Positions 5,045-57,341 of a DNA stretch of 64,000 bases are shown here, one piece after another. The notes below the pieces were generated by a model that had not been told where the DNA came from, did no database searches, and saw only the letters and a program-made list of their open reading frames with translations. Each line of letters begins with the position of its first letter. The stretch's first letter is position 1. The stretch is from an uncultured Gammaproteobacteria bacterium. GTDB taxonomy: Bacteria > Pseudomonadota > Gammaproteobacteria > Pseudomonadales > JAHEGP01. Location of the stretch: contig CAWBXV010000004.1 in assembly GCA_963792875.1 (NCBI GenBank), positions 665 through 64,664 of the forward strand, written 5' to 3'. The position numbers were made by a program, and so were the translations under genes.

Positions 5045-5798
5045 CACCGAGCGCGTCTTCGGCTGGCATGCCGTACTGGCCACCCTGCGCTCACATCCCG
5101 AGCGCGTGGTGGGCTTGTGGCTGGCGCCGGGGGACGACGGCGACCGCCAGCGCGAGCTGCGCGGACTCGCCGAGGCCGCCGGCATCACGGTGCAGCCCTG
5201 CGCCAGGCGGCAGCTCGATGAGTGGGTGCCCGGCAGGCACCAGGGCGTCGTGGCGCAGTGCCGGGTCGCGCCGCCGCCGGGTGAGCAGGCGTTGTCCGCC
5301 CATCTGGCGGGCCTGGCGCGGCCGTTGCTGCTGGTATTGGATGGCGTGACCGATCCTCACAACCTCGGCGCCTGTCTGCGCAGCGCCGATGCGGCCGGCG
5401 TCGATGCCGTCATCGTGCCCAGGGACAGGTCGGCGGGCTTGACGCCGGTGGTGCGCAAGGTGGCCAGCGGCGCCGCCGAGAGCGTGCCGCTGTATGTGGT
5501 GACCAACCTCGCGCGCACGCTGGACGAGCTCAAGCAGGCCGGCGTGTGGCTGGTGGGGGCGGCCGGCGAGGCCGCTCAGAGCCTCTACGAGGTGGACCTC
5601 GCGGGGCCCATTGCCCTGCTGCTGGGCGCCGAGGGCAGGGGCCTGCGCCGGCTGACCCGCGAGCGCTGTGATTTTCTGGTGAAGATTCCCATGGCCGGCG
5701 CCGTGGAGAGCCTCAACGTGTCCGTCGCGGCCGGCGTGTGTCTGTTCGAGGCGAGGCGCCAGCGGCTCATCGCGGAGAAAACCTCCGCTGCACCTTGA
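5037..5798 (+). CDS. rlmB: 23S rRNA Gm2251 methyltransferase
   Basis: LDGVTDPHNLGACLRSA, GAEGRGLR, ESLNVSVA SPOUT motifs. Confidence 0.96.
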   Translation: MASTERVFGWHAVLATLRSHPERVVGLWLAPGDDGDRQRELRGLAEAAGITVQPCARRQLDEWVPGRHQGVVAQCRVAPPPGEQALSAHLAGLARPLLLVLDGVTDPHNLGACLRSADAAGVDAVIVPRDRSAGLTPVVRKVASGAAESVPLYVVTNLARTLDELKQAGVWLVGAAGEAAQSLYEVDLAGPIALLLGAEGRGLRRLTRERCDFLVKIPMAGAVESLNVSVAAGVCLFEARRQRLIAEKTSAAP

Positions 5799-5854
5799 TC
5801 CCGGGGCCCGCCCTCTATAAAATGCCGGGTCCCCTTTTTGGGGTTCCCAATACA

Positions 5855-5905
5855 TCTCCTTGCCTCACCGCTGACAGCGGGAGGCTGCCCAATCCGAGAG
5901 GAGTA
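5855..5905 (+). promoter_or_regulatory. S6:S18-binding autoregulatory leader of the rpsF operon
   Basis: TCCTTGCCTC...GAGGC...AATCCGAGAGGAG: hairpin plus CCG next to the SD, matching the known gammaproteobacterial rpsF leader. Confidence 0.75.
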
Positions 5906-5910
5906 CTCCA

Positions 5911-6345
5911 TTGCGTCATTACGAGATCGTATTTCTGGTTCATCCGGACCAGAGTGAACAGGTTTCCGCCATGATCGAGCGGTATACCAAGCTCATCCAG
6001 GACGACGGCGGCAAAGTGCATCGCCTGGAAGACTGGGGGCGCCGCCAGCTGGCTTATCCCATCGAGAAGATCCACAAGGCGCACTATGTGCTGATGAACG
6101 TCGAGACCTCCGATGCGGTCATGGACGAGCTGACCACCAATTTCCGCTATAACGACGCGGTGTTGCGCAATCTGGTCATGCGTCGCGAAGATGCCGTCAC
6201 CGAGGAATCGCCCATCCTCAAGGTCGAGCGCGAAGGCCGCGATCGCCGTCCCCCGCGCCCGCCCCGCGGTGATTCCGGCAGGCACGGCGGCGCGCCCGTC
6301 GCAGCCGGCGGTGACGACAACGATGATTCCGAAGCTAGCGAATAA
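5911..6345 (+). CDS. rpsF: 30S ribosomal protein S6 (TTG start)
   Basis: [30 protein letters not shown]. Confidence 0.98.
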
Positions 6346-41456: not shown

Positions 41457-41533
41457 CGGAGTGTAGCTCAGCTTGGTAGAGCACTGTCTTCGGGAGGCAG
41501 GGGCCGGAGGTTCAAATCCTCTCACTCCGACCA
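41457..41533 (+). tRNA. tRNA-Pro (CGG)
   Basis: CGGAGTG...CTGTC-TTCGGGA-GGCAG...GTTCAAATC...CACTCCGACCA; 77 nt. Confidence 0.98.
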
Positions 41534-41606
41534 AATAACCTTATAAAACAATGACTTGCAATGAGTCGTTGCGCGCTTTTTCGTTATTGGTCGCTTTATC
41601 CTCGAT

Positions 41607-41628
41607 TTGGTACACAGCTTGGTACACA
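41607..41628 (+). repeat. Direct repeat TTGGTACACA x2, possible integrase arm-type sites
   Basis: ttggtacaca-gc-ttggtacaca about 75 bp past the tRNA 3' end. Confidence 0.55.
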
Positions 41629-41968
41629 CATCGAAGTGTGTGGCAGCCCGCTGTGCTGACCGCTTGTCATGCCCCCCGCCGCACCATATTGATCGCTGAA
41701 CCCGTCAGGTCGTCTCCGACGCCTGATCATCTGAGCTTTGGCAGGCGGCACCAATTGATTTAGATCAAAAGCATCCGCATAACCATAAAATATGTATGAC
41801 TTTTAATGAAGCCAAGCTCGCTCAATCCTGTAGAATCCCGCCGGCTTGCGAAAGTCCTTGCTAATTTAACCCTGGCTAACGCAGCCGCGACGCAGACGCC
41901 TCGCCGATCTCATTGAGTGCGGTGAGGGCGTCGGCGCAGCGCCTTTATTCTGCAGATGGAGATTTCTC

Positions 41969-42596
41969 ATGAAGAGCCAATTAGCAGTTGCAGCCACATC
42001 CTTTCTGCTCGTCGGGCCTGTACTGGCTGATAAGGCAGGCCCCTACGTCGGCCTGGGCGTAACCTCCAACGTCTACGGCAGTTCCGGCGACGATGACTTC
42101 GATAGTCTGTTCGAGGACGAGCGGGTCACCGGCTGGCGCCTGGAAGGCGGTTACATCTGGGACCTGGGTAAGCCCGGAGGTTTTCACCTGGGCGTGGTCG
42201 GAGCCTATAACGATTTCGGCAAGGCCACCATTGAGGAGTACTACTGTAGTGTCTGTAAGGCGGAACTGAGCGTCCAAGCGCAGGCGCTGTCCGTGCTGCT
42301 GGTCATCGAGCAGGAGATCGCGTCCTGGGTGGACTTCGTGTTCAAAGTGGGACCGTCTGCTGTAGCCTATGATGTTGAATTGGACTGATTATTATATCGG
42401 TGGCTATTATCAGGACTCCGAGAGCTCAACCGAGCCGGGTGCAACCGCGGTGATTGGCTTTACCTTCTTCCCGACCGAGTTCCTGGCCATCGAACTGGCC
42501 AGCCAAGGCACCGCGTTTGTCTATGACTATGCCTATGGTGGCGATGAGGTCTACACGGCATCGAGCCTGTCACTGTCCCTCCAGTACCGCTTCTGA
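41969..42596 (+). pseudogene. Outer-membrane beta-barrel protein (8-stranded type), frameshifted near 42385
   Basis: Signal peptide, GPYVGLG, amphipathic strands; C-terminal LSLQYRF beta-signal in another frame. Confidence 0.75.
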
Positions 42597-42968
42597 CGTG
42601 CGCTCAAGGGTGGTGCTGCTCGCTCAGTGCCGCCCGGAAACCCTCCTGAATCAGCGCTGCTCAGATCACTCATGTCCGCGTAGGAAGCGGATGGTGGTGG
42701 TGTCGGGATTGTCGATCGAACTTCGCCCCTGCAGTCGCGCATCCCCAGTAACTGCGCCGCCGTGGATGCAGCGGGAGCAAGAGAACAGCTAGTTCCCCCG
42801 TCAGTCCCGAAGCAGGATTGCCTCTGGTACCTATCCGGGTATCACTGCGCTGGCACCAGTCCCTGATCCGTGATCCGGGTTCGCGGCGATGACGGGGACA
42901 ATGCGGACCCTGCCGGGTCGCCGTCGAGGGTGCGGGGAGCGGGTCCGTGTCCGCGGTCGATGGGGTTT

Positions 42969-43371: not shown

Positions 43372-43436
43372 CACCCGCACCCGCACCCGCACCCGCACCC
43401 GCACCCGCACCCGCACCCGCACCCGCACCCGCACCC
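43372..43436 (+). repeat. Hexanucleotide microsatellite (CACCCG)10
   Basis: Ten perfect units plus a partial unit. Confidence 0.95.
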
Positions 43437-43576
43437 CACAATCTGCCGCCGGCAAATCCCTGATCGCGCCGGTCAGATGCCGGTCGGCATGGTAAAATAG
43501 GCAAATATTCGGCCCAGCCCTTCCGGGTTTATAAAAGTACGGGACACACCGGGATCGATAGTGTATAACAGGTTCC

Positions 43577-45313
43577 ATGGAGAGCGCTGCTGACATTACC
43601 GCCGACCGATCGTTGCTGCAAAGTTACGATGATGTCCTGGCCAGAAATCCTTTCTCGCAGCAGCAGGTGACGATCAGCAAAGCCGAGCATATAGATCTTA
43701 TCCATCGCGCACACTATTGGGAAGCACTGCACGCCCAGGTAAAACAAAAGTGTGCGCGACTGGAGGAGGAAAGCCAGCGCAAGGATGCCCGGATCAGAGA
43801 TCTCATCAACCGGGTCTTCGGCAAGACGAGCGAAAAACAGAGCACGGCAACATCGGAGAAGTCGGAGCCTTCGACGGCCAATCGCCCTCGGGGCCAGCAG
43901 CGAGGGAGCCGTGGGCATGGTCGCACCGCGCGCCCGAATTTGCCGGTTCTCAACGAGAAAGTCGACCTGCCGGATGATAAGAAGTGCTGCCCTGAATGCG
44001 GCCTATCGCGTTTACCACGGCCGGCCCTGGATGAAACCAGTGACATTATTGAGGTCGAGGTACGGGCCTACATCCGCCGTATTCATCGGCCGGCGTATGC
44101 GCGCAATCCGGGCTGCCATTGTTCGGACGTTCCTGCGATTATCACCGCATCGCCGCCCCCTCGCCTGATACCCCGCAGCCCCTACGGGATTGGTTTTTGG
44201 GTGGAAGTCTTATTGAGTAAATTTCAGTATTCGCAACCCACCCACCGCCACTTACAAGATCTTAATGACAGGTCCCTGCCGGTTTCACCGGGCACTGTCG
44301 CCGGCGGCCTGCAGACTATTGCCCCGCTGTTCAAGCCCATCATGGAAGGCCTCTATCAAAAACAGATGACTGAAGCCCTGTTTCATAATGATGAGACCCG
44401 CTGGGAAGTGTTTGTCGAGATGGAGGGCAAGGTTGGCCATCGCTGGTATTTGTGGGTGACCAGGTCACAATCGGCGATCTACTTTGTCCTCGACGCCAGC
44501 CGTAGCGCCGATGTGCCGGGCGCCCATTTTGCCGGATTGCAGGCAGAGCGCGTCATCATTGTCTGCGACCGCTACAGCGCCTACAAAAAACTGGCCCGGT
44601 TAACCGATGCGATCTTGTTGGCATTTTGCTGGGCCCATGTGCGTAGGGATTACCTCGATGCCGGTCGCAGTTACAAAGCACTCGAACCTTGGGCGCTGGA
44701 CTGGAAAGCACGGATCGGCGAACTCTACCATCGCAATCACTTGCGTCTTGAGCATTGGGACAGTGAACGCCCACTCGACCAACAAAGTGAGAGCTTTGAC
44801 CAGCACCATCAAGCCGTGCAGGAAACCCTGCAGGGGATGCTCGAAGAAGCCACCCGCCTCAGCGAGGACGATCAAGAACGGCTGGACGAGACGACACTCG
44901 CATTGTCACGCAGCGCTCGCAAGCAACAGCGCAAGGTCTGCAAAAGCTTGCTCACGCATTGGTCTGGCCTGACGCTGTTTATGGAAAACCCCGAGGTTCC
45001 CCTGGATAATAACCTGGCGGAAAATACCATTCGCGGCCCGGTCACCGGGCGCAAGAATTATTATGGTTCGGGGAGTTTGTGGAGCGCCCTCCTTGCGGCC
45101 TCAGCCTTTTCTATATTCAAGACCCTGGGCTTATGGCGCATCAACACCCACCATTGGCTGAGCGCTTATCTTACCGCCTGCGCCGAGAACGGCGGCGAGC
45201 CTCCCGCCGATATCACGCCCTGGTTGCCCTGGTCGATGGACCAGGCCCGACGCGATGAACTGGCCCGTCCACCACCCACCCGCTTGTCGCCAGCCACCCC
45301 GGATACCTCGTGA
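43577..45313 (+). CDS. IS66-family DDE transposase
   Basis: Coiled coil, CPECG, HNDET, CDRYSAY, CWAHVRR, DNNLAENTIR. Confidence 0.93.
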   Translation: MESAADITADRSLLQSYDDVLARNPFSQQQVTISKAEHIDLIHRAHYWEALHAQVKQKCARLEEESQRKDARIRDLINRVFGKTSEKQSTATSEKSEPSTANRPRGQQRGSRGHGRTARPNLPVLNEKVDLPDDKKCCPECGLSRLPRPALDETSDIIEVEVRAYIRRIHRPAYARNPGCHCSDVPAIITASPPPRLIPRSPYGIGFWVEVLLSKFQYSQPTHRHLQDLNDRSLPVSPGTVAGGLQTIAPLFKPIMEGLYQKQMTEALFHNDETRWEVFVEMEGKVGHRWYLWVTRSQSAIYFVLDASRSADVPGAHFAGLQAERVIIVCDRYSAYKKLARLTDAILLAFCWAHVRRDYLDAGRSYKALEPWALDWKARIGELYHRNHLRLEHWDSERPLDQQSESFDQHHQAVQETLQGMLEEATRLSEDDQERLDETTLALSRSARKQQRKVCKSLLTHWSGLTLFMENPEVPLDNNLAENTIRGPVTGRKNYYGSGSLWSALLAASAFSIFKTLGLWRINTHHWLSAYLTACAENGGEPPADITPWLPWSMDQARRDELARPPPTRLSPATPDTS

Positions 45314-46167
45314 GCGTCCGCTATTGCGGTCGTGACTTCAGCGACGAAGAGCTCACCCAAATCCGCCGCCTGATTGCCGAGCATCCGACATGTCATCGCG
45401 CACAGCTGTCGCGGATGACCTGCCAGGCTCTGCAGTGGTACAAGCCCGATGGCGGACTCAAAGCGATGTCCGCACGGGTCGCGATGCTGCGCATGCAGGA
45501 CGATGGGTTGATTAGCTTGCCACCGCCACGTCGCACACGCCCCGACCCAACCGTTCACCTGACGGATCGCACCGCACCCGGCACACCCATTGCACGACCT
45601 GCCGGCGCACTCAGGCCGTTGACCATGCAGCGCGTCCAATGTAAACCGGAATCGCAACTGTGGAACGAGTATATCGAACGTTACCACTACCTTGGCCACA
45701 AGCCCTTGCCTGGGGCTCAGCTGCGCTACTTGATCTACGCCGATAATCAGCTCATCGCATTGCTTGGCTTCGGCGCAGCCGCCTGGCAAACCGCGCCCCG
45801 TGACCGCTATATTGGTTGGGACCATGAGCAGCGCAAAAAGAACCTCCACCTCATCATCAACAATGCACGATTCCTGATTCTGCCCTGGGTACAATCAAAG
45901 AATCTCGCCTCGATGATACTGGCCATGGCTGCCAAGCGTCTGCCTGATGACTGGCAAGCGCAATACGCTTATCGGCCGGTATTGATGGAGAGCTTTGTTG
46001 AGAAACCCCGCTTTGAAGGAACCTGCTACAAAGCCGCTAACTGGCGTTATCTCGGGCAAACCAAGGGGCGTGGCAAGCTCGGTCCAGCCGGTAAACAGAG
46101 CGTGCCAATCAAAGACTTATGGGTCTACCCCCTGAATACGGCCTTCAAGGATCGGCTAACTGATTGA
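45310..46167 (+). CDS. DUF4338 (DruA-like) domain protein
   Basis: RYCGRDF, RYHYLG, RDRYIGW, NNARFLILPW, NLAS, GTCYKAANW. Confidence 0.85.
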   Translation: MSVRYCGRDFSDEELTQIRRLIAEHPTCHRAQLSRMTCQALQWYKPDGGLKAMSARVAMLRMQDDGLISLPPPRRTRPDPTVHLTDRTAPGTPIARPAGALRPLTMQRVQCKPESQLWNEYIERYHYLGHKPLPGAQLRYLIYADNQLIALLGFGAAAWQTAPRDRYIGWDHEQRKKNLHLIINNARFLILPWVQSKNLASMILAMAAKRLPDDWQAQYAYRPVLMESFVEKPRFEGTCYKAANWRYLGQTKGRGKLGPAGKQSVPIKDLWVYPLNTAFKDRLTD

Positions 46168-46240
46168 TTCTTGGGGGTAGGGGCAGTCCGAATGTTCACT
46201 AAAATAGCGATGTATCCTATTGTAATTAAAGGGGATTATC

Positions 46241-46994: not shown

Positions 46995-47524
46995 TCACGG
47001 GCCCTCGGGATGGGCTGCCCGGTACTCCCGCCAGAGCAGGAACAGGGTGACGGACTTCTGCTTGAGCCCCTGGTGGATAACCAGCCAGTCAGGAATGCCG
47101 CGGAGCTGGGCCGGCAATTCCGGTGGTGGCGCGAACAGCAGCCGTTCCAGACGGGCATCGTCCAAATCGGCCGGCAGGGGCCAGCGCACCCCGGCCTCTT
47201 GGGCCCGGCGCAGGTATTCAGCGACGGTGGGGCGGCCAATGCCGCTGCTGGTCGCAATCTGGCGATTGCTCATTCCCTTGCCCCATTTGAGGCGCAGGAC
47301 TTCTTTGATTTTACGCATGGATAACCTCTTGGCAGGCATCTGATCCCCTCCGGTTGGAAAGGGGCTGAATACCGGTTAGTTATCCCGCGTCGGTTGGCTC
47401 CGAGGGAAGATCTCAGGCGCTCTGCCGGGGTGGCAGCTTTGCCGTGGAATCAGTGGCAGCATTCGCGTGGAATGGGTGGCAGGCTTCGTCTGGAATCAGT
47501 GGCAGGCTTGGTCTGGAATATGCA
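46995..47524 (-). mobile_element. IS21-family remnant: left end with four 23-bp repeats and truncated istA (46995-47339)
   Basis: MPAKRLSMRKIKEVLRL...VTLFLLWREY; terminal TG and GTGGCAG...TGGAAT repeats at 47430-47521. Confidence 0.85.
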
Positions 47525-47818
47525 ACACCGCCGGTCGAAAGACATAGCGACAAAGCCGTTGCAGTTCGTCGCACTGATTGCGTCTCTGTCGATACCGCGG
47601 CATAAAGCGACTCCAGACAGCGCCAGGCCTTCCCCGATTTGCGAACACGCTCCCATTTCCAAGTGTCAGCGCTCAATCGGCTGATTCGTTTTCTATATTT
47701 CTGCAAGCAGAGCTGTATGCCTCAAATCGGGAATTCCAACAGGAAAACAAAGGGAACTTGGGAAATGATTGCCGGCGACTAGATACGCCGGCGTGCGAAG
47801 TTGTAGGCGGGGAGGAAG

Positions 47819-48934
47819 GTGCCAGTGTTCGGTATTTCAGCGTCCGGATCGCTCGAGAGGAATGCCGGCAACGGCGATGCAGCCGCCTCGTTGCAACCAA
47901 ACGTCCTGGGACCCTTTAATGATTGCGAAGCGCGATGGCCGGCAAGCTGGCAAATGCGCGGCACTCAGGTGCCAGGCTTTTGCGCGGGCACGCGAGTCTA
48001 TCGAAAATTCTATGACGCCGGCGAGTTGATAGACCGCGGCGTGCAGCGACTCTTCGGCGTCACGGGTTCGAGGGTGGTCCGGTGGCAGGAGAGGCTCACT
48101 CATCGGATCGGAAACGTTAGGTTGTCGAGTCGACGTCACGCTCTCATCACCAAGGAGCAGATAGCCAGCGTTGGCAGCCATCTTCTGCCCGGTGATCTCC
48201 TCCTGGAGCGCCAGGAATTCTTTATTTCCAACCTGGCAATGCCAGGCTTCTGGAAACACTCGGCCATTCACGTAGGGACACCATCCCTTCGACGCCAGTA
48301 TTTCGACTGTCCTGAGGTGGCTGCCTGGGTTCGCCTGCAAGGCACGAAGAGCGGATGTCTCGAGGATTTGCTGAGGCAGCGAGACCCGGGGACCTATGAG
48401 CAATGCCTGCTTTTCCGCGATGGGAGGCCGGTTCGCATCCTCGAGTCGCTCGGTAGCGGAGTCACGTTCACGAGCCTCGAATACACTTCCGCCGTCGACT
48501 CGCTCGCCGTGCTCAGGCCCAGGCTCACAAAACTGGCCAAGGCCCAAGCGCTGGCAAACGCGTTCTCCTTTGTGGGGCGCCCCTACGACTACCGCTTCGA
48601 TTTTGCGACGGACGACAGCCTGATCTGCAGCGAGCTCGTCTACAAGTCCTTTCACTCCCGCGCGGGTCAGGAAGGCCTTGGGCTTGCGGTGCGGGAGATT
48701 TCCGGAAAGTTCGCCATGCCCACCAACGATATCGCCCGCTTCTATGCCCAGCGCAATGCCAGTTCCAAACAGGAATTGGACCTCGTCGAATTTCTCGACG
48801 GCAACGTGTTAGCCGAAGTTGCAGTGCAGTCGCCACCTTCGCACTTTCTCGAAAGCTGGAAGCGTCACCCGTGGCGACCGTCCTTCCCCGCCAACCCCGT
48901 TGAACTGCCAGCCCTGGAGTGCCAGATACCATGA
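47819..48934 (+). CDS. Permuted papain-like NlpC/P60 enzyme (YiiX/YebB family); start uncertain
   Basis: PGDLLL, PGFWKHSAIHVG (His), GRPYDYRFD, ICSELV (Cys) in permuted order. Confidence 0.82.
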   Translation: MPVFGISASGSLERNAGNGDAAASLQPNVLGPFNDCEARWPASWQMRGTQVPGFCAGTRVYRKFYDAGELIDRGVQRLFGVTGSRVVRWQERLTHRIGNVRLSSRRHALITKEQIASVGSHLLPGDLLLERQEFFISNLAMPGFWKHSAIHVGTPSLRRQYFDCPEVAAWVRLQGTKSGCLEDLLRQRDPGTYEQCLLFRDGRPVRILESLGSGVTFTSLEYTSAVDSLAVLRPRLTKLAKAQALANAFSFVGRPYDYRFDFATDDSLICSELVYKSFHSRAGQEGLGLAVREISGKFAMPTNDIARFYAQRNASSKQELDLVEFLDGNVLAEVAVQSPPSHFLESWKRHPWRPSFPANPVELPALECQIP

Positions 48935-50748
48935 GAGACGCCTTTCCCCGCTTTACGTGTCCTGTCGTCAGACCGGGGGACGGGCGGTCCTACCGCCTCG
49001 CCCAGTACCAGTATGCGTCGACATCCCAACCCACGGAGCTGATGTCGCCGGGAGCGATCATCTCTCCGAGGGGCGCCAGCGCCGACGAGGATGTCTTTCG
49101 AGCTCTTGCCTATGCCCGGGATCGTGGCATAGCGGTGGCCGTCCGCACGGGAGGCCATTGCTACGCGGGCACATCTTCGACGAGCGGGAAAAACATCCAG
49201 CTCGACCTGAGCCAGTCCTACACCGACTGGCGCTACGACGAGAACACGGGACTCATTCGCTGTGGTGTGAGCCGGACATTGCACGACTTCAAGTTGCGTC
49301 TCGCGCGACATCGACGCGCCGACGGCACCCCCGATCACCTCTTTATGCCCGTCGGGCAATGCTACGCCGTGAACCTGGGCGGTCACTGTATGACGGGCGG
49401 CGTGGGCCAGCTGACCCGTGCCTTCGGCATGCTCGCTGACCACGTCATCACTGCGGACGTCATTGTTGCGGACGGGAGTCGCAGGTGTATCGGTCCCGCG
49501 AGCGAGAGCGAGCAAGACCGGGCGCTGTTCTGGGCCATGTTCGGCGGGGGGCCGGGAGACTACGCCATACTCACCCACATCACCTTCAGGCCGCTGCGGG
49601 ATGCCGATCATGCCTACGCAAGGGGCTTTCGGCGAGTCATACCCTACGATCCCCGGGTGGACACGGAAAAGCTGGTGCAACTCATCGACCTGGCGGTCAA
49701 ATTCCAACACGCACCCCAGGACTACGACCTGTGTATCAGCGCCGGGTCGGGCGAAACCGGCTTCTTTGGGCATCGTCTGGGCGTGACCAATCGGGACGCC
49801 TTCATGTCAGCCTTTCATGCGCCTGATCGCCCCTGGTTTGTGGCCAACAAGAGCTCGCCAGCCGCGGGTCTCGCGGTATTTTTCCAATATTCGAATCTCG
49901 ATGGCCAGCCCGACTCCTACGATCCGTCGTGGGTCGAAGCGATTCGCAGCGCCTTGTCCCGGGGCGGCAGGGGGAGTGTGTTTCACCGCTTCAAGGCGCG
50001 CGGCGCGGAACTCCTGAGCCGCACGCCCTTGCTGCCCGAAGCGCGGAACATCGACGATGACCTGCCCCGCCCCATCTCGGAGATGATCACCAGGCACTGG
50101 GCTTTCGGCGGCGTGCGGGAGTACAGCTATCCGTTCATCAAGAATGACGCCATCACCCGGCAAGAGACCGGCCCCGGCTTCTCGCGATGGGCTGCAGAGC
50201 GCATGAACGAACTCTTCAGGAGCAAGGCTGACGGGCTGATGGCGTCCATGCAGATCCAGCAATTCGGCGGCGCGGACTCAGGAAAAGTCAAACATGGAGC
50301 GCGCGGCGAGACCTCCTACCATTGGCGGGACGGAATGGTTGTGGGGCTCAACGTCTTCTACGACCCGTCGGTGGCGGGCGCCCCCGACAAGGCAAGAGCC
50401 TGGCAACAGCGGATCGACGAAGAGGGCACGGGCGATCGACCCGGCTACACCTCACCCGCGATGTACCGCTGGTTCAGCTTTCCCACTGGCAGTCAGGTGA
50501 TGTCCGAAGTCTGGCCCGCCTATTTCACGGAGGAGAACTACATACAATGCAGAGACGTCAAGCGAAGGGTCGACCCCTGGGGTGTCTTCAGCGCGACGCC
50601 TTTTTCCATCGGCTTTGACCTCCCCCGCGAGCGTGAGGCCACCGAAGTCGAACAGTACCCGAACAGCGCTGCGGCTGACCAACCGGAGCGCAACACGCCC
50701 CCCAGAGCAGCAGCGATCGCCAGTTTGGCAGTTTTGGAAGACGCCTAG
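48931..50748 (+). CDS. FAD-linked oxidase, BBE-like, predicted bicovalent FAD
   Basis: VRTGGHCY, PVGQCYAVNLGGH, LFWAMFGGGPG, C-terminal KRRVDPWGVF. Confidence 0.88.
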   Translation: MRDAFPRFTCPVVRPGDGRSYRLAQYQYASTSQPTELMSPGAIISPRGASADEDVFRALAYARDRGIAVAVRTGGHCYAGTSSTSGKNIQLDLSQSYTDWRYDENTGLIRCGVSRTLHDFKLRLARHRRADGTPDHLFMPVGQCYAVNLGGHCMTGGVGQLTRAFGMLADHVITADVIVADGSRRCIGPASESEQDRALFWAMFGGGPGDYAILTHITFRPLRDADHAYARGFRRVIPYDPRVDTEKLVQLIDLAVKFQHAPQDYDLCISAGSGETGFFGHRLGVTNRDAFMSAFHAPDRPWFVANKSSPAAGLAVFFQYSNLDGQPDSYDPSWVEAIRSALSRGGRGSVFHRFKARGAELLSRTPLLPEARNIDDDLPRPISEMITRHWAFGGVREYSYPFIKNDAITRQETGPGFSRWAAERMNELFRSKADGLMASMQIQQFGGADSGKVKHGARGETSYHWRDGMVVGLNVFYDPSVAGAPDKARAWQQRIDEEGTGDRPGYTSPAMYRWFSFPTGSQVMSEVWPAYFTEENYIQCRDVKRRVDPWGVFSATPFSIGFDLPREREATEVEQYPNSAAADQPERNTPPRAAAIASLAVLEDA

Positions 50749-50776
50749 ACCGCCGATGACAACAGGAGGCACACCA

Positions 50777-52631
50777 GTGCTTGCCATATTCTTACTTTCG
50801 AGCTGTTTCATTGGTGGACTGGTCAGCGCAACGGCGCTTTGGAGCGCGCGGCAACGCGCCCGCCGAGGCGCACTCGCCGCGCTGCCCAGACCCGCCGCGC
50901 ACCACCGACTACCCGAACTGCCCTCTTTCCAGGGCAGCGTTTTCCTGCCGGATCACCCGCGCTACGACAAAGCACGCTACCAGTACGCGACGACGTCCTA
51001 TCCACCGGGAGATATGTCCCCGGGAGCCATCGTGCGGCCGCGACACCCCGACGCTGACGCCGATGTGCGGGCCGTGCTCGCCTATGCCAAGGCAAAGGGC
51101 GTCCGTGTGGCGGTGCGAACGGGAGGCCACGCCTACAACGGGACCTCGTCCTGTGGCCCCGACGCACTGCAGCTCGACCTGCGCGAGGCGTACCGGGACT
51201 GGGACTACGACTCCGAGGCAGGCACAGTTCGCATGGGAGTCAGCTTCAGCCTCAAAGAGATGTATGCACGCCTGCGCGCCATCGAAACCTCCCCCGGATA
51301 CTCCCTGTTTCTCCCGATTGGCCAGTGCTGTGACGTCCATGTAGGGGGACACTGCCAGACAGGAGGCTACGGGCAGCTTGCCCGGGGCTTTGGCCTGCTC
51401 GCAGACTTCATCCTCTCTGCGGAAATCATCACCGCTGACGGTGAGAAGCGCACCATCGCACCTGATGCGGAGGACCCGCTTGATCGCGAGCTGTTCTGGG
51501 CAGTATTTGGTGCCGGACCGGGTAACTTCGGTGTCCTGACCCACATCACAGTCAGGCCCGGTCGGGACGAGGACCACCCGGACTCGCGAGCCTACCGTCG
51601 CGTGGTGCCATACGAGAAAGGCAGGGACGCCTGGCTGCTCGTCGAACTCGGGGAGATCGTTCAGGAGTTTGAAAGAGCGCCGCGCGGATACGACATCTGC
51701 ATCACCTGGTCCTCGGCGGAGGAGCGCTTCTTCGCCAACGTCTTCGGTTTCGGCGGTCAGGCCGACGGCCAGGGCCCGCCGACCAAGAACCTCTCTGCGG
51801 CGCCCTATCCCTGCATAGTCGTGTACTTTCAGTACTCGAATCCAGCGGGCGGAGACGAAGTCTACGACCCGTCGTGGTGTCAGCGCATCAAGGACCTGCT
51901 CGGGCGGCACAGCCGCACCCTGCCCGGCACACTCTTCTCGGCTTTCGTTTGGTCCGTTCAGGGCGCGCGCGGGAAGCTCCCGGACGATGCCCGCCACACT
52001 CCCATCTCGCGCTCGATGTCCCACCTGTGGATGTTCAACGCGACGCGCGAATTCAACTACCCGGTGAAGAAGTACACGGCGTTCACCGACAGGCCCGCCT
52101 CGCCGGAGTTCGCCGCCTGGTGCGTAGACTGCGTGGATCCGCTGATGCGGCGCGAGGGAGACGGAATCATGGTCATTCTGCAGTACCTGCAGCTCGGTGG
52201 CACGGCCTCCATGCACCGGAAGCACGGTGATTCCTGCAAGACCGCGTTCAGTTGGCGTGATACCGGTTTCGTGGTGGTCATAGACATTTTCTACAATCCC
52301 GATCACCCCGGCGCAGAGAACGAGGTCGAAGCGTGGCACCGGAAGATTCTTTCCGAGGGCATGGGGCCCGGCGGCAGGATCTGCGACCATGACCGCCGCT
52401 GGATTCTGGTCGCCCTACGGCGAAAAAGACATGCGCGTGGTGTGGAAAAACTATTTCGACTCCCGCGAGAAGTACGAGCGGGCTCTGGCCATCAAACGGC
52501 GGATCGACCCTAACAAGGTCTTTACCGCCTCCCCCTTCCACCTCTGCTACGGCGAGCAAGAGGCCACGGTCTCGGCGCCACCGCCCAGGAAGGAAAGGGA
52601 GTCCCGCTGTTCGCTGCTGCAATCCGCCTGA
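50777..52631 (+). CDS. Second BBE-like FAD-linked oxidase with N-terminal TM anchor; +1 frameshift near 52403
   Basis: AGGAGG RBS, VRTGGHAY, PIGQCCDVHVGGH; BBE tail (KRRIDPNKVF) in a different frame. Confidence 0.82.
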
Positions 52632-52632
52632 C

Positions 52633-53451
52633 ATGAGAGTCCGAGTGACGCCTCTGGGGCACGCTACCTGCCTGATAGAGATCGGCTCTCTGCGGCTCAT
52701 CACCGACCCGATTTTCGACGGGCCGGGAGGTGCGCTGCGTCGCTTTTTCTTTGCGTCGAGCCGGAGGCAACCGCCCCCGATCCTCCCGGAGGATTTACCT
52801 TGCATCGATGCCGTGCTCCTCTCCCACGCCCACATCGATCACACGGACAAGTATTCTCTCAGCCGTTTGCCCGAATCGGCGAGGGCGATCTGCCACTGGC
52901 GCAATGGAAATCTGCTGAAGCGCTTCCCGGATCGGCGACCGCTGCGCTGGGGCGAAGCTACGATCATCCGTAACGCGCACGGGGACACAGCGAAAGTGAC
53001 GGCGATACCGGCGGGCCACTACGGTGCCCGCCTCTTACTTGACCGTTGGCGCGGCTACGGGGGCTTCCTCATAGAGATCGATCGGCCGCCGTCCGGCGCA
53101 GCGGGTGCCGGCCCCATGACGCTCATGTTTGCCGGTGATACGGCTCTTACCGACGAATACGCGAAGCTCCGGCAACGAAGGGGCGGCCGGGGTGTGGACC
53201 TCGCCATCATGCCCATCGGCGGCTATGACCCGTGGATTTGGAACCATTGCTCACCCGAGCAAGCGTGGAAGATGGCCGTGGGGGACCTTGGGGCCGCACG
53301 CGTCATGCCGATCCACTATGATGTCTTCCCCCTCTCCCGCGAGCCGGTCGGCGAAGCGATGCAGCGCTTCAGGAATGCGGCCGATGCCGTTGGCGAAGGG
53401 TACCGGCTGGTCGGGACGAGAATCGGACACCCCTGTATCGTAGACTGGTAG
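52633..53451 (+). CDS. MBL-fold metallo-hydrolase, NAPE-PLD/RomA-like
   Basis: LGHAT, TDPIF, SHAHIDH, FAGDT, MPIGGY, HCSPEQA, PIHY. Confidence 0.88.
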   Translation: MRVRVTPLGHATCLIEIGSLRLITDPIFDGPGGALRRFFFASSRRQPPPILPEDLPCIDAVLLSHAHIDHTDKYSLSRLPESARAICHWRNGNLLKRFPDRRPLRWGEATIIRNAHGDTAKVTAIPAGHYGARLLLDRWRGYGGFLIEIDRPPSGAAGAGPMTLMFAGDTALTDEYAKLRQRRGGRGVDLAIMPIGGYDPWIWNHCSPEQAWKMAVGDLGAARVMPIHYDVFPLSREPVGEAMQRFRNAADAVGEGYRLVGTRIGHPCIVDW

Positions 53452-53521
53452 CAAAGCCTGACGGAAGGCAGCGCGGGCGCGCTGGGCGTTGGACCAGAGC
53501 AAGTGATGGCATAACAATTTT

Positions 53522-53704
53522 TTGCCGATGCAGACGGCCTTTTTGGGCCCGATCAGCTCGCAGTTTGCGTCCGGTTCCTTCCAAAAAGACCCCCTGTCGG
53601 TGGGTTGTCTCATCGAGTCCATCAAGGCAGAAGCTCTCGTGGGCACCATGGAAGCCATCGTTCAAGCCGAAGATCCCGGCGCAGCCCTCAAGCCGGCTTT
53701 CTGA
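53522..53704 (+). pseudogene. Possible C-terminal transposase remnant
   Basis: VGCLIESIKAEAL..EDP resembles transposase C-termini; recalled similarity only. Confidence 0.3.
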
Positions 53705-53744
53705 GGGGGTAAGCAGCGTTTCCAGCCTTTAAATTGCCTATATT

Positions 53745-54296
53745 TTGATCAATCGCTGCTCAATCGCCGCCGTAGCGAAACGACCGCTTTTCCTCACCAT
53801 TGAAATGAGGCAAGGTGCCGTTTTCGTTCAGTCTGGAATTCGATCAGTGGAAGTTGTAGGCGAAGAAATCAGAACAGAGGCGATGGATCATCATGGTCTG
53901 GTGGCGGCAGTTTGTAAAGAACTCAAAATTGCCGAAAGAATCGACCAGGTACTGTATCAGGAAGATACCGGCCGGGTCGTAACGCCGGGGGAATCGGTCG
54001 TCGCGATGATCATCAATGGATTGGGTTTCACCAATCGCCGATTGTACTTGATGGGGCAATTTTTCAAGAACAAGCCGATAGAAAAGCTCATCGCGCCGGG
54101 CTTGAGGGCCGAAGATATCACCTACGACGCGCTGGCTGCCACGCTGGATGATATAGGGCAGTATGGCGAGAGCCGACTGTTCGGCGAAGTGGCGCTGGAC
54201 ATTGCACTGGAAAACCAGTTGCTGGGCTCTCTCAACCCGTCAGTTGCATACGCCAGCGCGCCCTGCAATCGTAACTCATTGATTCAAATGCTTTAG
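53745..54296 (+). pseudogene. IS1634-family transposase N-terminal fragment
   Basis: DHHGLVAAVC, AMIINGLGF..RRLYL..QFF; truncated. Confidence 0.8.
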
Positions 54297-54384
54297 TTTG
54301 ACTTACGCGCCAATCTCTGGATTTCACCCACGGTGAGATCCAGAATCGTTCGAAAAACCCATGAATTTCAGCATATATAAAAAA

Positions 54385-55442
54385 GGGGGTGGTCAGCTAG
54401 CGCCTCCAACCACTATATGTTGTGGTGTTGCCAATCAAAACCATGAGCAATTTCGTGCTCGATTATGGGGTTCGTATTGACAGCCTGTTCAAGTAATCTG
54501 AAAAATACCAGTCCACGACAACGTGATGTGCGACGGTTGAATCGGAAAGTAAATTCTTCAAGGTACGATTGCAAATGCTCATTGCCAACAGATCCCTGGT
54601 GTGTGCCGAGAATCCATCGTTTGAGAAGACTCGCAATACGGTGAACGCCCGGCATAGAAACGTGTGCAGGATCATCGTTGGATGAAAGTATCTTCTTTTG
54701 GTGCACATAACCATTCTGTTGTAGTTCATTGTAGCCACCCCAGCCATCTGTTTGTACAGTCGTACCCGGTGCCACCCCATCACAGACAAATGGAACCAAG
54801 CTGTCCCCCGATGCATCAGGAATATGGCGCATCCGAATGCGACCAAACCCCTTTGGCTCTTTGAGCTCAACAGCAATAACAACGATGGCTTTATCAGCAC
54901 CGCGCCCTCGCTTTCCGCCACGATCGATACCCCCCACAAAGCTCTCATCGATCTCTACAATTCCAGAAAGCTGTTCTCGTTCGCTCCGCACCATGGCAAT
55001 ACGGTACCGATGAAGCATCTTCCATGCTGTACGGTAGCTTGTGCCCAATGTTCTCTGCAGCGTTTTTGCAGATAAGCCATTCTTGGCCGTCGTCATGTGC
55101 CATGCAGTTTCAAACCAAGTCGTAAAAGGCGTGCGCGTTTTGTCGAATATTGTACCTCTAGTTGCGGTTGTTTGATGACGACATCGAGGGCAAACCAGTC
55201 TCCCACGAGTTTGACGCCACGGCTCCGAAACAGAACTACAGGCCGGGCAGATAAAACCATTCGGCCAACGTAGCTTCACAAGATAGGCGATACAGGATTC
55301 CTCATCAGGAAACCACTCCACAAATTCCCGATATATTCGTGGGTAGTCAATCCCTGCTTTTGGGGTTGTCCGTGTTTGCGCTTGATCTCGTAAATCGTTC
55401 ACCCCTATATCTTGTGCCAGGAGGCGCTAGTTGACCACCCCC
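54385..55442 (-). mobile_element. IS1595-family element
   Basis: 23-bp IRs GGGGGTGGTCA(G/A)CTAGCGCCTCC; no matching TSD. Confidence 0.88.
54413..55402 (-). CDS. IS1595-family transposase
   Basis: RWPNGFICPAC zinc ribbon, VEIDE, TDGW, YLEEFTFRFNRR. Confidence 0.93.
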   Translation of the reverse strand: MNDLRDQAQTRTTPKAGIDYPRIYREFVEWFPDEESCIAYLVKLRWPNGFICPACSSVSEPWRQTRGRLVCPRCRHQTTATRGTIFDKTRTPFTTWFETAWHMTTAKNGLSAKTLQRTLGTSYRTAWKMLHRYRIAMVRSEREQLSGIVEIDESFVGGIDRGGKRGRGADKAIVVIAVELKEPKGFGRIRMRHIPDASGDSLVPFVCDGVAPGTTVQTDGWGGYNELQQNGYVHQKKILSSNDDPAHVSMPGVHRIASLLKRWILGTHQGSVGNEHLQSYLEEFTFRFNRRTSRCRGLVFFRLLEQAVNTNPIIEHEIAHGFDWQHHNI

Positions 55443-55645
55443 TTAAGATCTATATGCTCGGCTTTGCTGATCGTCACCTGCTGCTGCGAGAAAGGATTTC
55501 TGGCCAGGACATCATCGCAACTTTGCAGCAACGATCGGTCGGCGGTAATGTCAGCAGCGCTCTCCATGGAACCTGTTATACACTATCGATCCCGGTGTGT
55601 ACACCGTACTTTTATAAACCCGGAAGGGCTGGGCCGAATATTTAC
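55443..55645 (-). mobile_element. Truncated second copy of the IS66-DUF4338 element left end
   Basis: Near-identical reverse complement of 43501-43700. Confidence 0.92.
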
Positions 55646-56344: not shown

Positions 56345-56673
56345 CCCTGGAAACGGCCCGCCCTTCCCCCTCTATCAGTCACACACCTGAGCGCAGGAGG
56401 GCTGACCTTGGCTTGCGTCCGAGAATTGATCATTTTTTAGCCGGAAAGCCTGGTAAGACCGCCCCACCCAGAGCGAACTTCGGCACTTTACAACTCGTCG
56501 AAGCAGGAAAGCGAGCTGCGACGATCACGATTTGGGTTCGCCAAATGGTTGAGCAGGCCGTTTATGAAATGATCGGGTTAGGTTCATAATTCCCCTAAAC
56601 TGCTGGCAACTTGCCAAAAAGTAGTCACTTATATAAAATGACATCAATGAATGCATTTATAGTAGGTGATGCC

Positions 56674-56925
56674 ATGGCAACTCTGACAGTTCGTAATTTG
56701 CCCGACGAGGTCCATCGCGCGTTACGTGTGCTCGCTGCAGGCCACGGTCGCAGCACTGAAGCCGAGGTGCGCGCCATACTGGAAGATGCGGTAAGACCCG
56801 AAGGGCGACTGAAGCTAGGTTCCTTGCTGGCGGATATTGGTCAACAGGCTCGACTAACCGACGAAGAAGCGGAGTTGATGACTCGGCGTGACCAATCCCT
56901 GCCTAGCCCGGTAAGTTTCGAATGA
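56674..56925 (+). CDS. FitA/StbC-like ribbon-helix-helix antitoxin
   Basis: MATLTVRNLPDEVHRALR..AA.HGRSTEAEVRAIL. Confidence 0.9.
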   Translation: MATLTVRNLPDEVHRALRVLAAGHGRSTEAEVRAILEDAVRPEGRLKLGSLLADIGQQARLTDEEAELMTRRDQSLPSPVSFE

Positions 56926-57341
56926 TCCTGATCGATACCAATGTCATCTCAGAACCGCTGCGTGCGGCGCCGGAACCCAAGGTTGTCGAGTGGCTCGACA
57001 TGCAACCACTGGAAACGCTCTATCTTTCGGTGATAACAATCGCTGAGCTGCGTTTCGGCGTAGCGCGGTTACCGGCTGGGAAGCGACGGAATACTTTGCT
57101 GGAACGACTGGAAACCCAAGTCATTCCATCGTTCGCTGGACGCGTGCTTACCTTCGATCTCGCTGCAACCCAGGCCTATGCCGACCTGATGTCCAAAGCA
57201 CAAAGTGCTGGGCTCGTCATTGGCATGGCCGATGGCTATATCGCTGCAATCGCTACAGTCAATGGCATGACGGTTGCCACGCGCGATGTCGCACCTTTTA
57301 AGGCAGCGGGTGTTTCCGTCATCAACCCTTGGTCTTCCTAA
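56922..57341 (+). CDS. vapC: PIN-domain toxin (VapC/FitB/StbB)
   Basis: ILIDTNVISE, AELRFG, ADGYIAA, ATRD; ATGA overlap with the antitoxin. Confidence 0.92.
   Translation: MILIDTNVISEPLRAAPEPKVVEWLDMQPLETLYLSVITIAELRFGVARLPAGKRRNTLLERLETQVIPSFAGRVLTFDLAATQAYADLMSKAQSAGLVIGMADGYIAAIATVNGMTVATRDVAPFKAAGVSVINPWSS

Follow-up and report, generated by a model that had tools for sequence, protein, structure and literature searches.

What might a compact row of genes do when each gene comes from a known superfamily and only the combination seems to be new? The question is raised by four genes at positions 47819–53451 of the window, i.e., the whole stretch of 64,000 nucleotides analyzed here (G000:C4:665-64664), which lies on the 66.5-kb contig C4 of an uncultured gammaproteobacterial genome of 3.86 Mb in 10 contigs. 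The genes encode a permuted NlpC/P60 enzyme of the Peptidase_C92 family (hereafter C92), two berberine bridge enzyme (BBE)-like oxidases dependent on flavin adenine dinucleotide (FAD), and a metallo-β-lactamase (MBL)-fold hydrolase resembling N-acyl-phosphatidylethanolamine phospholipase D (NAPE-PLD). The original prediction had regarded them as an operon that may make or degrade, and then oxidize, N-acyl lipids; its observation is partly confirmed and its interpretation partly supported. By sequence comparison, the conserved unit is a three-gene core (C92, an oxidase of the first type, and the hydrolase) that occurs in only a single small clade per family. We tentatively propose, with a probability of about 0.35, that this three-enzyme core and the second oxidase act on a lipid whose head group is an N-acylated amino alcohol. 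Full-text literature searches, which do not cover subscription journals, revealed no account of an operon with this composition.

Four genes and their predicted enzymes

In the list of open reading frames, the four genes all lie on the plus strand and are tightly packed, as had been described. The TGA of gene 1 overlaps the ATG of gene 2 (ATGA at 48931–48934), the TAG of gene 2 (50746–50748) is followed after a 7-nt gap by the ATG of gene 3 at 50756, and the region of gene 3 ends at 52631, a single nucleotide (52632) before the ATG of gene 4 at 52633. A promoter and terminator scan of 47300–53900 gave no counts above those of shuffled sequences.

Gene 1 (47819..48934) encodes a short-clade YiiX/C92 protein that exceeds the cut-off of Pfam PF05708 (Peptidase_C92; 47.5 versus 27 bits, E 2.7e-12). 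Its homologues align only from approximately residue 46–50 of the frame that opens at GTG 47819; thus, ATG 47954 is an equally likely start. Residue numbers given here count from ATG 47954. His102, Glu164, Tyr211, and Cys225 are invariant in 21 of 21 aligned sequences, and Glu164 is, from invariance alone, the presumed third catalytic residue. The order of His before Cys is the permuted one. A profile of the 21-sequence alignment finds Escherichia coli YiiX in the PDB through a PYD...CSE motif (E 8.7e-6), the Tyr and Cys of which align with those of YiiX. The model built from the alignment has a predicted local distance difference test score (pLDDT) of 85.4 and a predicted template modeling score of 0.85, and superimposes on YiiX (2if6_B) with a Z-score of 15.6 and a root-mean-square deviation of 2.2 for 147 aligned residues; Foldseek likewise returns 2if6 as the top match (probability 1.00, E 1.6e-3). 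Bacillus cereus BcPPNE (3kw0_A) follows with a Z-score of 13.2. The third-best structural match is the permuted NlpC/P60 enzyme TseH (Z 7.5), and PLAAT4 (Z 6.5, 94 residues aligned) and the RID domain of MARTX (Z 5.0) are also present, so that three lipid-acting permuted enzymes are found among the matches.

The assignment to the permuted NlpC/P60 enzymes is therefore borne out by the Pfam match, the YiiX fold, and the invariant residues, with PLAAT4 as a remote structural relative. The protein scores far below the cut-off of the NCBIfam YiiX equivalog NF007458 (23.2 versus 216 bits) and is, by sequence, a member of the Peptidase_C92 family, not a YiiX orthologue. No LRAT/PLAAT membership was detected by sequence, PF05708 being the only Pfam family that matches at E ≤ 1e-2 (0.01). 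A peptidoglycan-hydrolase reading of this gene was rejected, given the permuted type, the YiiX fold, and the lack of an export signal. For YiiX, Xu et al. named Cys128, His49, Glu64, and Tyr115 as the catalytic residues, and a lipid-binding role together with a fatty-acid/amino-acid amidase role has been proposed for YiiX and BcPPNE (PMC3142127). According to a 2026 paper, permuted NlpC/P60 enzymes target fatty-acyl linkages, and Tox-Act1 and TseH show phospholipase activity (PMC12994826).

Genes 2 (48931..50748, plus strand) and 3 (50756..52631, plus strand) encode two BBE-like flavoproteins: oxidase 1, with 605 aa, and oxidase 2, a divergent paralogue. Both contain FAD_binding_4 (Pfam PF01565). 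All 18 family members in the alignment, both oxidases included, share His76 (RTGGH), Gly142, Cys144 (GQC), Val147, and His152, and AknOx and GilR have their RSGGH and GxC sites at the positions aligned with His76 and Cys144; the claim that both oxidases retain the RxGGH histidine and the GxC cysteine is thus upheld. Rules given in PMC4898691 state that Gly at Cys−2 and Val at Cys+3 open the oxygen pocket, that Leu marks dehydrogenases, and that His at Cys+8 is typical of bicovalent enzymes. Both oxidases carry Gly at Cys−2, Val at Cys+3, and His at Cys+8, and with this full motif they are predicted to be oxygen-reactive BBE-like enzymes with bicovalently bound FAD. The model of oxidase 1 (pLDDT 79.2) shows a BBE-like fold over the whole length, matching EncM, PpBBE1, BBE, and GOOX with template modeling scores (target) of 0.70–0.80 and E-values down to 9e-21. 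The C-terminal region aligns weakly to AknOx and GilR. For the BBE domain PF08031, oxidase 1 has no match at E ≤ 0.01, and an out-of-frame C-terminal piece of oxidase 2 reaches 18.8 bits against a cut-off of 20.6.

That oxidase 2 forms one open gene is not what the assembly contains. The frame that begins at 50756 runs to a stop at 52513, and the conserved C-terminal BBE-like part lies in another frame (52389–52631), the break being one extra T in a TT at 52404/52405. Contigs from three DNA runs and one RNA run were aligned to the cluster; those of run X2 and of the RNA run do not cover the site, and the extra T is absent in both contigs that do (runs X1 and X3, from different studies). When the extra T is removed, oxidase 2 becomes one open frame with the junction RRWIWSPYGEKDM, and the same motif occurs in P0212, a 599-aa oxidase 2 orthologue with 73% identity. 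Since the other contigs and P0212 give an open frame, the frameshift probably reflects either an error in the assembly or a change of very recent date, the gene being open in the population. A membrane anchor had also been proposed for one oxidase. Oxidase 2 does have a strongly hydrophobic N-terminal helix (residues ~4–29; Kyte-Doolittle 19-residue mean of 2.13), but this helix is not retained in P0212 and P0214 (maxima of 1.23 and 1.17), and oxidase 1 has no hydrophobic segment (maximum of 1.20).

The two oxidases share 40–43% identity. In a quick tree of proteins of at least 450 aa (the careful tree search was unfinished), oxidase 1 falls in a 10-row clade with a Shimodaira–Hasegawa-like approximate likelihood ratio test (SH-aLRT) value of 99, and oxidase 2 falls in a separate clade with P0212 and P0214. 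Because of these separate clades, and with the identity of 40–43%, a recent tandem duplication was rejected.

Gene 4 (52633..53451, plus strand) encodes a 272-aa hydrolase consisting of the catalytic core only, with a Lactamase_B_2 match of 80.8 bits in Pfam (E 1.3e-22). Its best solved relative is human NAPE-PLD (PDB 4qn9, E 1.8e-19, chain residues 125–366), and the next is TM_1162 (E 1.8e-5). The HxHxDH motif and the further His and Asp residues, nine in all, align between the hydrolase and 4qn9: D25/D147, H65/H185, H67/H187, D69/D189, H70/H190, H129/H253, D169/D284, H205/H321, and H228/H343. We take the nine aligned residues of 4qn9 to be the metal and catalytic residues of NAPE-PLD. The di-zinc site of NAPE-PLD is formed by conserved motifs (PMC4819959, review). 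With every motif residue aligned, the proposed NAPE-PLD-like assignment is well supported.

Linkage and distribution of the core genes

A second case of linkage is found in a metagenome-assembled genome (MAG) of the Myxococcota. A scan with the oxidase alignment, using one genome per species, yielded 48 loci, which were searched by tblastn with the window proteins. Both the C92 and the MBL partners occur at one of them, L005, where the hydrolase, C92, and oxidase genes follow one another in this order on one strand and encode proteins with 53%, 47%, and 68% identity, respectively, to those of the window. The genome carrying L005, named G041 here, encodes just one member of this oxidase family. 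Among 401 genomes of its phylum, 62 have a C92 relative at E ≤ 1e-25, and the close C92 occurs only in G041 (E 5.3e-84 versus 1.6e-57 for the next best). The close hydrolase is likewise limited to G041 (E 1.5e-82), the only one of the 401 with a match at E ≤ 1e-40. L005 also contains a methyltransferase-like gene upstream of the core (209–1198) and, tail-to-tail with the oxidase, a gene on the minus strand (5054–6253) for a 399-aa protein without a Pfam match; neither has a counterpart in the window.

Further linkage was sought among close homologues from three protein searches, where a shared source and an equal contig size suggest, and do not prove, a common contig. All three core proteins have equal-size contigs of 10067 bp (oxidase P0002, C92 P0036, hydrolase P0093) and of 51848 bp in a Sandaracinus MAG (P0005, P0037, P0094, in the same order). 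Pairs were found at 12109 bp (oxidase P0008 and hydrolase P0103), 5805 bp (oxidase P0004 and C92 P0038), 2840 bp (oxidase P0003 and C92 P0040), and 162034 bp in a Myxococcales MAG (oxidase P0006 and C92 P0039). These equal sizes suggest that the core genes co-occur on five further assemblies. Oxidases P0007, P0009, and P0010 (contigs of 17227, 4657, and 9552 bp) have no equal-size C92 or hydrolase match, which is no evidence of absence, as the lists are incomplete and lack the C92 of L005. All seven oxidases with evidence of a C92 partner fall in one 8-row clade of the quick tree (SH-aLRT 99). Contrary to what would have refuted the original prediction, homologues of the three-gene core thus do co-occur and are adjacent in L005. 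The four-gene form was seen only in the window, and the linkage is not shared by distant relatives.

The closest oxidase homologues come from Myxococcota, and the oxidase was not found in 6 genomes of the same genus and 34 of the same order at E ≤ 1e-20. Contigs with near-identical pieces of the cluster occur in metagenome runs of marine-sediment, estuary, and marine origin. Contigs of an estuary RNA library match 49178–49396, 51934–52119, and 53213–53362 with 0–3 differences; this is a weak hint of transcription, as DNA can be present in RNA libraries. Neighbors in the ESM Atlas are informative at the family level only.

The oxidase family is small, with 165 representatives at E ≤ 1e-30 among 1.84 billion (oxidase 2 as the query), and spans many bacterial phyla as well as Glomeromycotina fungi at 31–34% identity. 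The fungal oxidases (P0022–P0029, from Gigaspora, Racocetra, Rhizophagus, Glomus, and Acaulospora) form one clade in the quick tree. Distant oxidase relatives adjoin genes for very large adenylate/guanylate-cyclase–AAA_16–TPR proteins, one neighbor cluster of which covers nine loci; examples are L006 (3920–7933), L007 (9785–13816), L018 (4628–7846), and L019 (132–3614), and also L014, L021, and L027, with Pfam domains checked on four of them. Oxidase forms of ~970–1030 aa, with a long N-terminal region ahead of the oxidase itself, occur in L043, L044 (6642–9560), L046, and L048; two FAD_binding_4 stretches are detected by Pfam in those of L044 and L048.

The nearest outgroup of the window C92 clade is a long clade of ~500-aa proteins. 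A metagenome scan with C92 recovered 80 loci of this clade at 35–47% identity, and their neighbors include a monogalactosyldiacylglycerol-synthase-like glycosyltransferase in 13, an APP1 phosphatidate phosphatase in 9, and a Glyco_trans_1_3 (GT1_3) protein in 5 of the 80. At least one of these three glycerolipid-type neighbors is present at 23 loci, often directly 3' of the long-clade gene, as in L054 (6717–7982), L087 (3393–4460), and L077 (2095–3282). This arrangement suggests a membrane-lipid remodeling operon. Tandem C92 copies occur at some of the long-clade loci (L054 and L057).

A candidate N-acyl lipid route and its alternatives

The core would combine a short permuted cysteine acyl-hydrolase or acyltransferase of the YiiX type, a two-metal phosphodiesterase of the NAPE-PLD type, and a bicovalent-FAD oxidase that uses O2. 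In the route that we propose, the MBL enzyme would cleave the phosphodiester of a lipid resembling N-acyl-phosphatidylethanolamine (N-acyl-PE) and release an N-acyl amino alcohol. One or both oxidases would then convert the primary alcohol to the aldehyde and further to the acid, giving an N-acyl amino acid, e.g., N-acylglycine, with H2O2 as the by-product. C92 would handle the fatty acyl group through a Cys thioester, in either of two directions: in a biosynthetic, PLAAT-like option, it would put the acyl group on the amine, and in a catabolic option, it would remove the acyl group from the final N-acyl amino acid, in line with the amidase role proposed for YiiX. Because the cluster products have no signal peptides, the route is probably located at the cytoplasmic face of the membrane. 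We infer the substrate (a lipid, N-acyl-PE, or an N-acylethanolamine), the order of the steps, and the direction from family resemblance.

A role in lipid or N-acyl-amide metabolism is supported indirectly by the C92 fold, which is that of the fatty-acid-binding YiiX, by the 23 of 80 long-clade relatives that lie near glycerolipid genes, by the NAPE-PLD motif of the hydrolase, and by the precedent of SapB. As a BBE-like oxidase, SapB takes an N-acyl amino alcohol to an N-acyl amino acid; double alcohol oxidations are likewise carried out by CrmK and Dbv29 (PMC11375781, review). N-acyl-PE has been detected in bacteria, according to PMC5193443.

Several observations weigh against this reading. 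Only a handful of assemblies show the linkage, and it does not extend to distant relatives: at 47 of the 48 oxidase loci, neither partner lies within up to 8 kb, several of these loci being short, and the form with a second oxidase was seen only in the window. Likewise, none of the 80 long-clade C92 loci has the oxidase, and only one has an MBL gene, a distant one located 3 kb away on the other strand. Glycerolipid remodeling is tied to part of the nearest outgroup and not to the cluster itself; neither here nor in L005 is a lipid gene next to the cluster, and glycerolipid neighbors were seen at none of 29 C92 loci of the phylum of G041, where the flanks were only 1.5 kb. As for the enzymes, the hydrolase has no counterpart to the first 124 residues of NAPE-PLD and belongs to a very large family, with 1785 matches at E ≤ 0.001 that are mostly labeled as UlaG-like or MBL-fold hydrolases. 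The fold matches of oxidase 1 point to no particular substrate. The start frame of oxidase 2 ends early at 52513, the gene being frameshifted in the assembly, and its hydrophobic helix is missing from P0212 and P0214. In addition, an H2O2-forming oxidase in the cytoplasm would be costly to the cell.

In a rival explanation of only slightly lower probability, the cluster tailors or breaks down a small molecule that is not a lipid, which might be a secondary metabolite, a xenobiotic, or a compound from algae or plants. The part of C92 would then be that of an amidase, the MBL enzyme would hydrolyze an ester, a lactone, or another bond, and an alcohol or an amine would be the substrate of the BBE-like oxidases. 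Most of the bacterial BBE-like oxidases characterized so far tailor natural products, and AknOx, GilR, TamL, EncM, and CrmK are indeed the top sequence or fold matches; yet neither locus has polyketide, peptide-synthetase, or sugar genes next to the cluster. In L005, the methyltransferase-like gene just 5' of the core would suit such a module. The weaker matches of the hydrolase include the isothiocyanate hydrolase SaxA (E 5.8e-4), but the hydrolase is 14 orders of magnitude nearer to NAPE-PLD. The large cyclase–AAA_16–TPR regulators that often adjoin oxidase relatives also fit a non-lipid module, whereas every structural relative of C92 whose substrate is known acts on fatty-acyl linkages (PMC12994826).

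It is a long shot that the cluster serves in conflict, with C92 as a phospholipase-type permuted NlpC/P60 toxin or anti-phage effector and with oxidase-derived H2O2 adding to the damage, carried on mobile DNA. TseH ranks third among the structural matches of C92 (Z 7.5), and permuted NlpC/P60 effectors of type VI secretion systems are phospholipases (PMC12994826); moreover, the cluster lies among insertion sequences (IS), near a FitA/PIN pair (56611–57341) and a DruA-like gene. That gene, however, belongs to an IS66-family element that also occurs elsewhere in the genome, where the cluster is missing, and no signal peptide, secretion-system gene, immunity-like gene, or toxin-delivery domain was found. 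A reading as a defense system was rejected, since the four proteins match no PADLOC family (E ≤ 0.01). Equally improbable is that the genes are decaying cargo, a non-functional remnant trapped between insertion sequences. Such decay would agree with the frameshift of oxidase 2 in the assembly, with a region full of IS fragments, and with the failure to find the oxidase in the 40 genomes of the same genus and order. Against it, the other three genes are intact with all catalytic residues retained, both of the other contigs that cover the frameshift site have an open frame, so that the shift may be an assembly error or very recent, and the RNA-library contigs match three of the genes, a weak hint given that DNA can be present.

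A bolder form of the lipid proposal appears improbable to us, although it goes furthest. The cluster would be a mobile bacterial route that mirrors and extends the animal PLAAT to NAPE-PLD pathway, through YiiX-type N-acylation of phosphatidylethanolamine, release of an N-acylethanolamine, and its oxidation by a new clade of bicovalent flavin oxidases to lipoamino acids of the N-acylglycine type. N-acylethanolamines and N-acyl amino acids are potent signaling lipids in animals and in host–microbe exchange, and we know of no genetically defined bacterial pathway through N-acyl-PE. If this mirrored route were true, it would represent a second, GNAT-independent origin of such signaling lipids and would give the first assigned function to an oxidase family shared with arbuscular mycorrhizal fungi. 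More generally, an operon of a lipid-acyl cysteine enzyme and a NAPE-PLD homologue makes the question of bacterial N-acyl-PE and N-acylethanolamines directly testable, and the cluster would provide first functions for three clades, i.e., the short YiiX-like proteins, the bacterial NAPE-PLD-like hydrolases, and the oxidase family of 165 representatives that extends to Glomeromycotina. Even if the substrate were not a lipid, this compact cluster would still supply a new type of bicovalent flavin oxidase.

Genomic surroundings and known counterparts

The cluster lies inside ~6 kb of DNA that is unique in the genome (~47525–53592) and is placed between insertion sequences; IS material on both sides, as described in the original prediction, is evident from Pfam matches, repeats, and copies elsewhere in the genome. 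The left border is an IS fragment on the minus strand (46995..47524) that matches only helix-turn-helix Pfam models, contains a helix-turn-helix N-terminal fragment (46995–47339) and 23-nt repeats (47428–47519, repeat family D3), and is 97% identical over 47001–47524 to C6:81100-81619. By its likeness to IstA and its repeated ends, it is presumably of the IS21 family. The right border is a multi-copy IS fragment on the plus strand (53593..54296), with copies on C6, C1, and C5, that contains a DUF4277 N-terminal fragment (53745–54296, Pfam E 4e-31).

Farther to the left, a complete IS66-family element of 2698 bp (43503..46200, plus strand; DDE_Tnp_IS66 E 8.4e-51) is 99.9% identical to C6:746865-749562. 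It comprises the transposase gene (43577–45313, plus strand) and a DruA/DUF4338-like gene (45310–46167, plus strand; DruA E 7.7e-51, with a weak Mom match), the start of which overlaps the transposase stop. Because this gene overlaps the transposase in an element that is copied elsewhere, it is an IS passenger and not part of a Druantia system. The genome has two full copies of the element and two further left ends, i.e., four copies of the end. One of these is a truncated, inverted copy of ~200 bp on the minus strand (55444..55645; inverted repeats I1, 99%, and I2, 94% complementary). The end motif occurs exactly twice in the window, and the inverted ends at 43503–43700 and 55444–55645 bracket the cluster, 11.7 kb apart. 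The right copy was cut to ~200 bp by the insertion of an IS1595-family element on the minus strand (54383..55444; DDE_Tnp_IS1595 and Zn_ribbon_IS1595) with its own 45-nt inverted ends (I3). A composite transposon would have two copies of one IS with intact ends and a target-site duplication; here, other IS fragments lie inside the bracket, and no obvious duplication was seen in the flanking bases read. Since IS copies are shared with C6 and C3, contig C4 probably belongs to the genome.

The G+C content of the cluster is 0.58–0.65, compared with 0.64–0.68 for the contigs. A mobile context is supported by the flanking repeats and IS copies and by the search of the 40 related genomes, in which the oxidase was not found; the cluster is probably accessory and horizontally acquired. 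The IS-rich DNA from a tRNA gene (41457–41530) to the contig end looks like a tRNA-associated island. The tRNA gene is followed by 1.3 kb (41563–42865) with 95.5% identity to C6:78579-79883, and a CACCCG hexanucleotide run of ~11 units (43372–43437) lies just 5' of the IS66-family element. At 56611–57341, genes for a FitA-like ribbon-helix-helix antitoxin and a PIN-domain toxin overlap, as a VapBC/FitAB-type pair.

Among known proteins, E. coli YiiX and BcPPNE (PDB 2if6 and 3kw0) share with C92 the fold, the permuted His-then-Cys order, and the PYD...CSE motif. However, C92 is only ~15–20% identical to them and has ~45 residues inserted after the catalytic His as well as an N-terminal helix pair. 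We know of no linkage of YiiX to an MBL enzyme or an oxidase. The catalytic domain of the long-clade YiiX/YebB-like proteins is closer (35–47% identity, with the same invariant residues), but these proteins carry an additional N-terminal hydrophobic segment and a helical domain of ~250 residues. The oxidases have FAD_binding_4, the His and Cys sites, the Gly/Val gatekeepers, the His at Cys+8, and the whole-length fold in common with SapB, CrmK, Dbv29, AknOx, and GilR; yet the sequence similarity is limited to the FAD domain (E ~1e-17), and the window oxidases are ~100 residues longer and form a small separate family, which to our knowledge has no characterized member.

As a system, the cluster is best compared with the animal PLAAT to NAPE-PLD route, which likewise consists of a permuted NlpC/P60 cysteine enzyme and an MBL-fold enzyme, NAPE-PLD being the closest solved relative of the window hydrolase. 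Yet important differences are present: the cysteine enzyme of the window belongs to the YiiX/C92 family and not to LRAT/PLAAT, and the hydrolase is without the 124 N-terminal residues of NAPE-PLD. Distinctively, the window genes are operon-linked and joined to flavin oxidases, for which the animal route has no counterpart.

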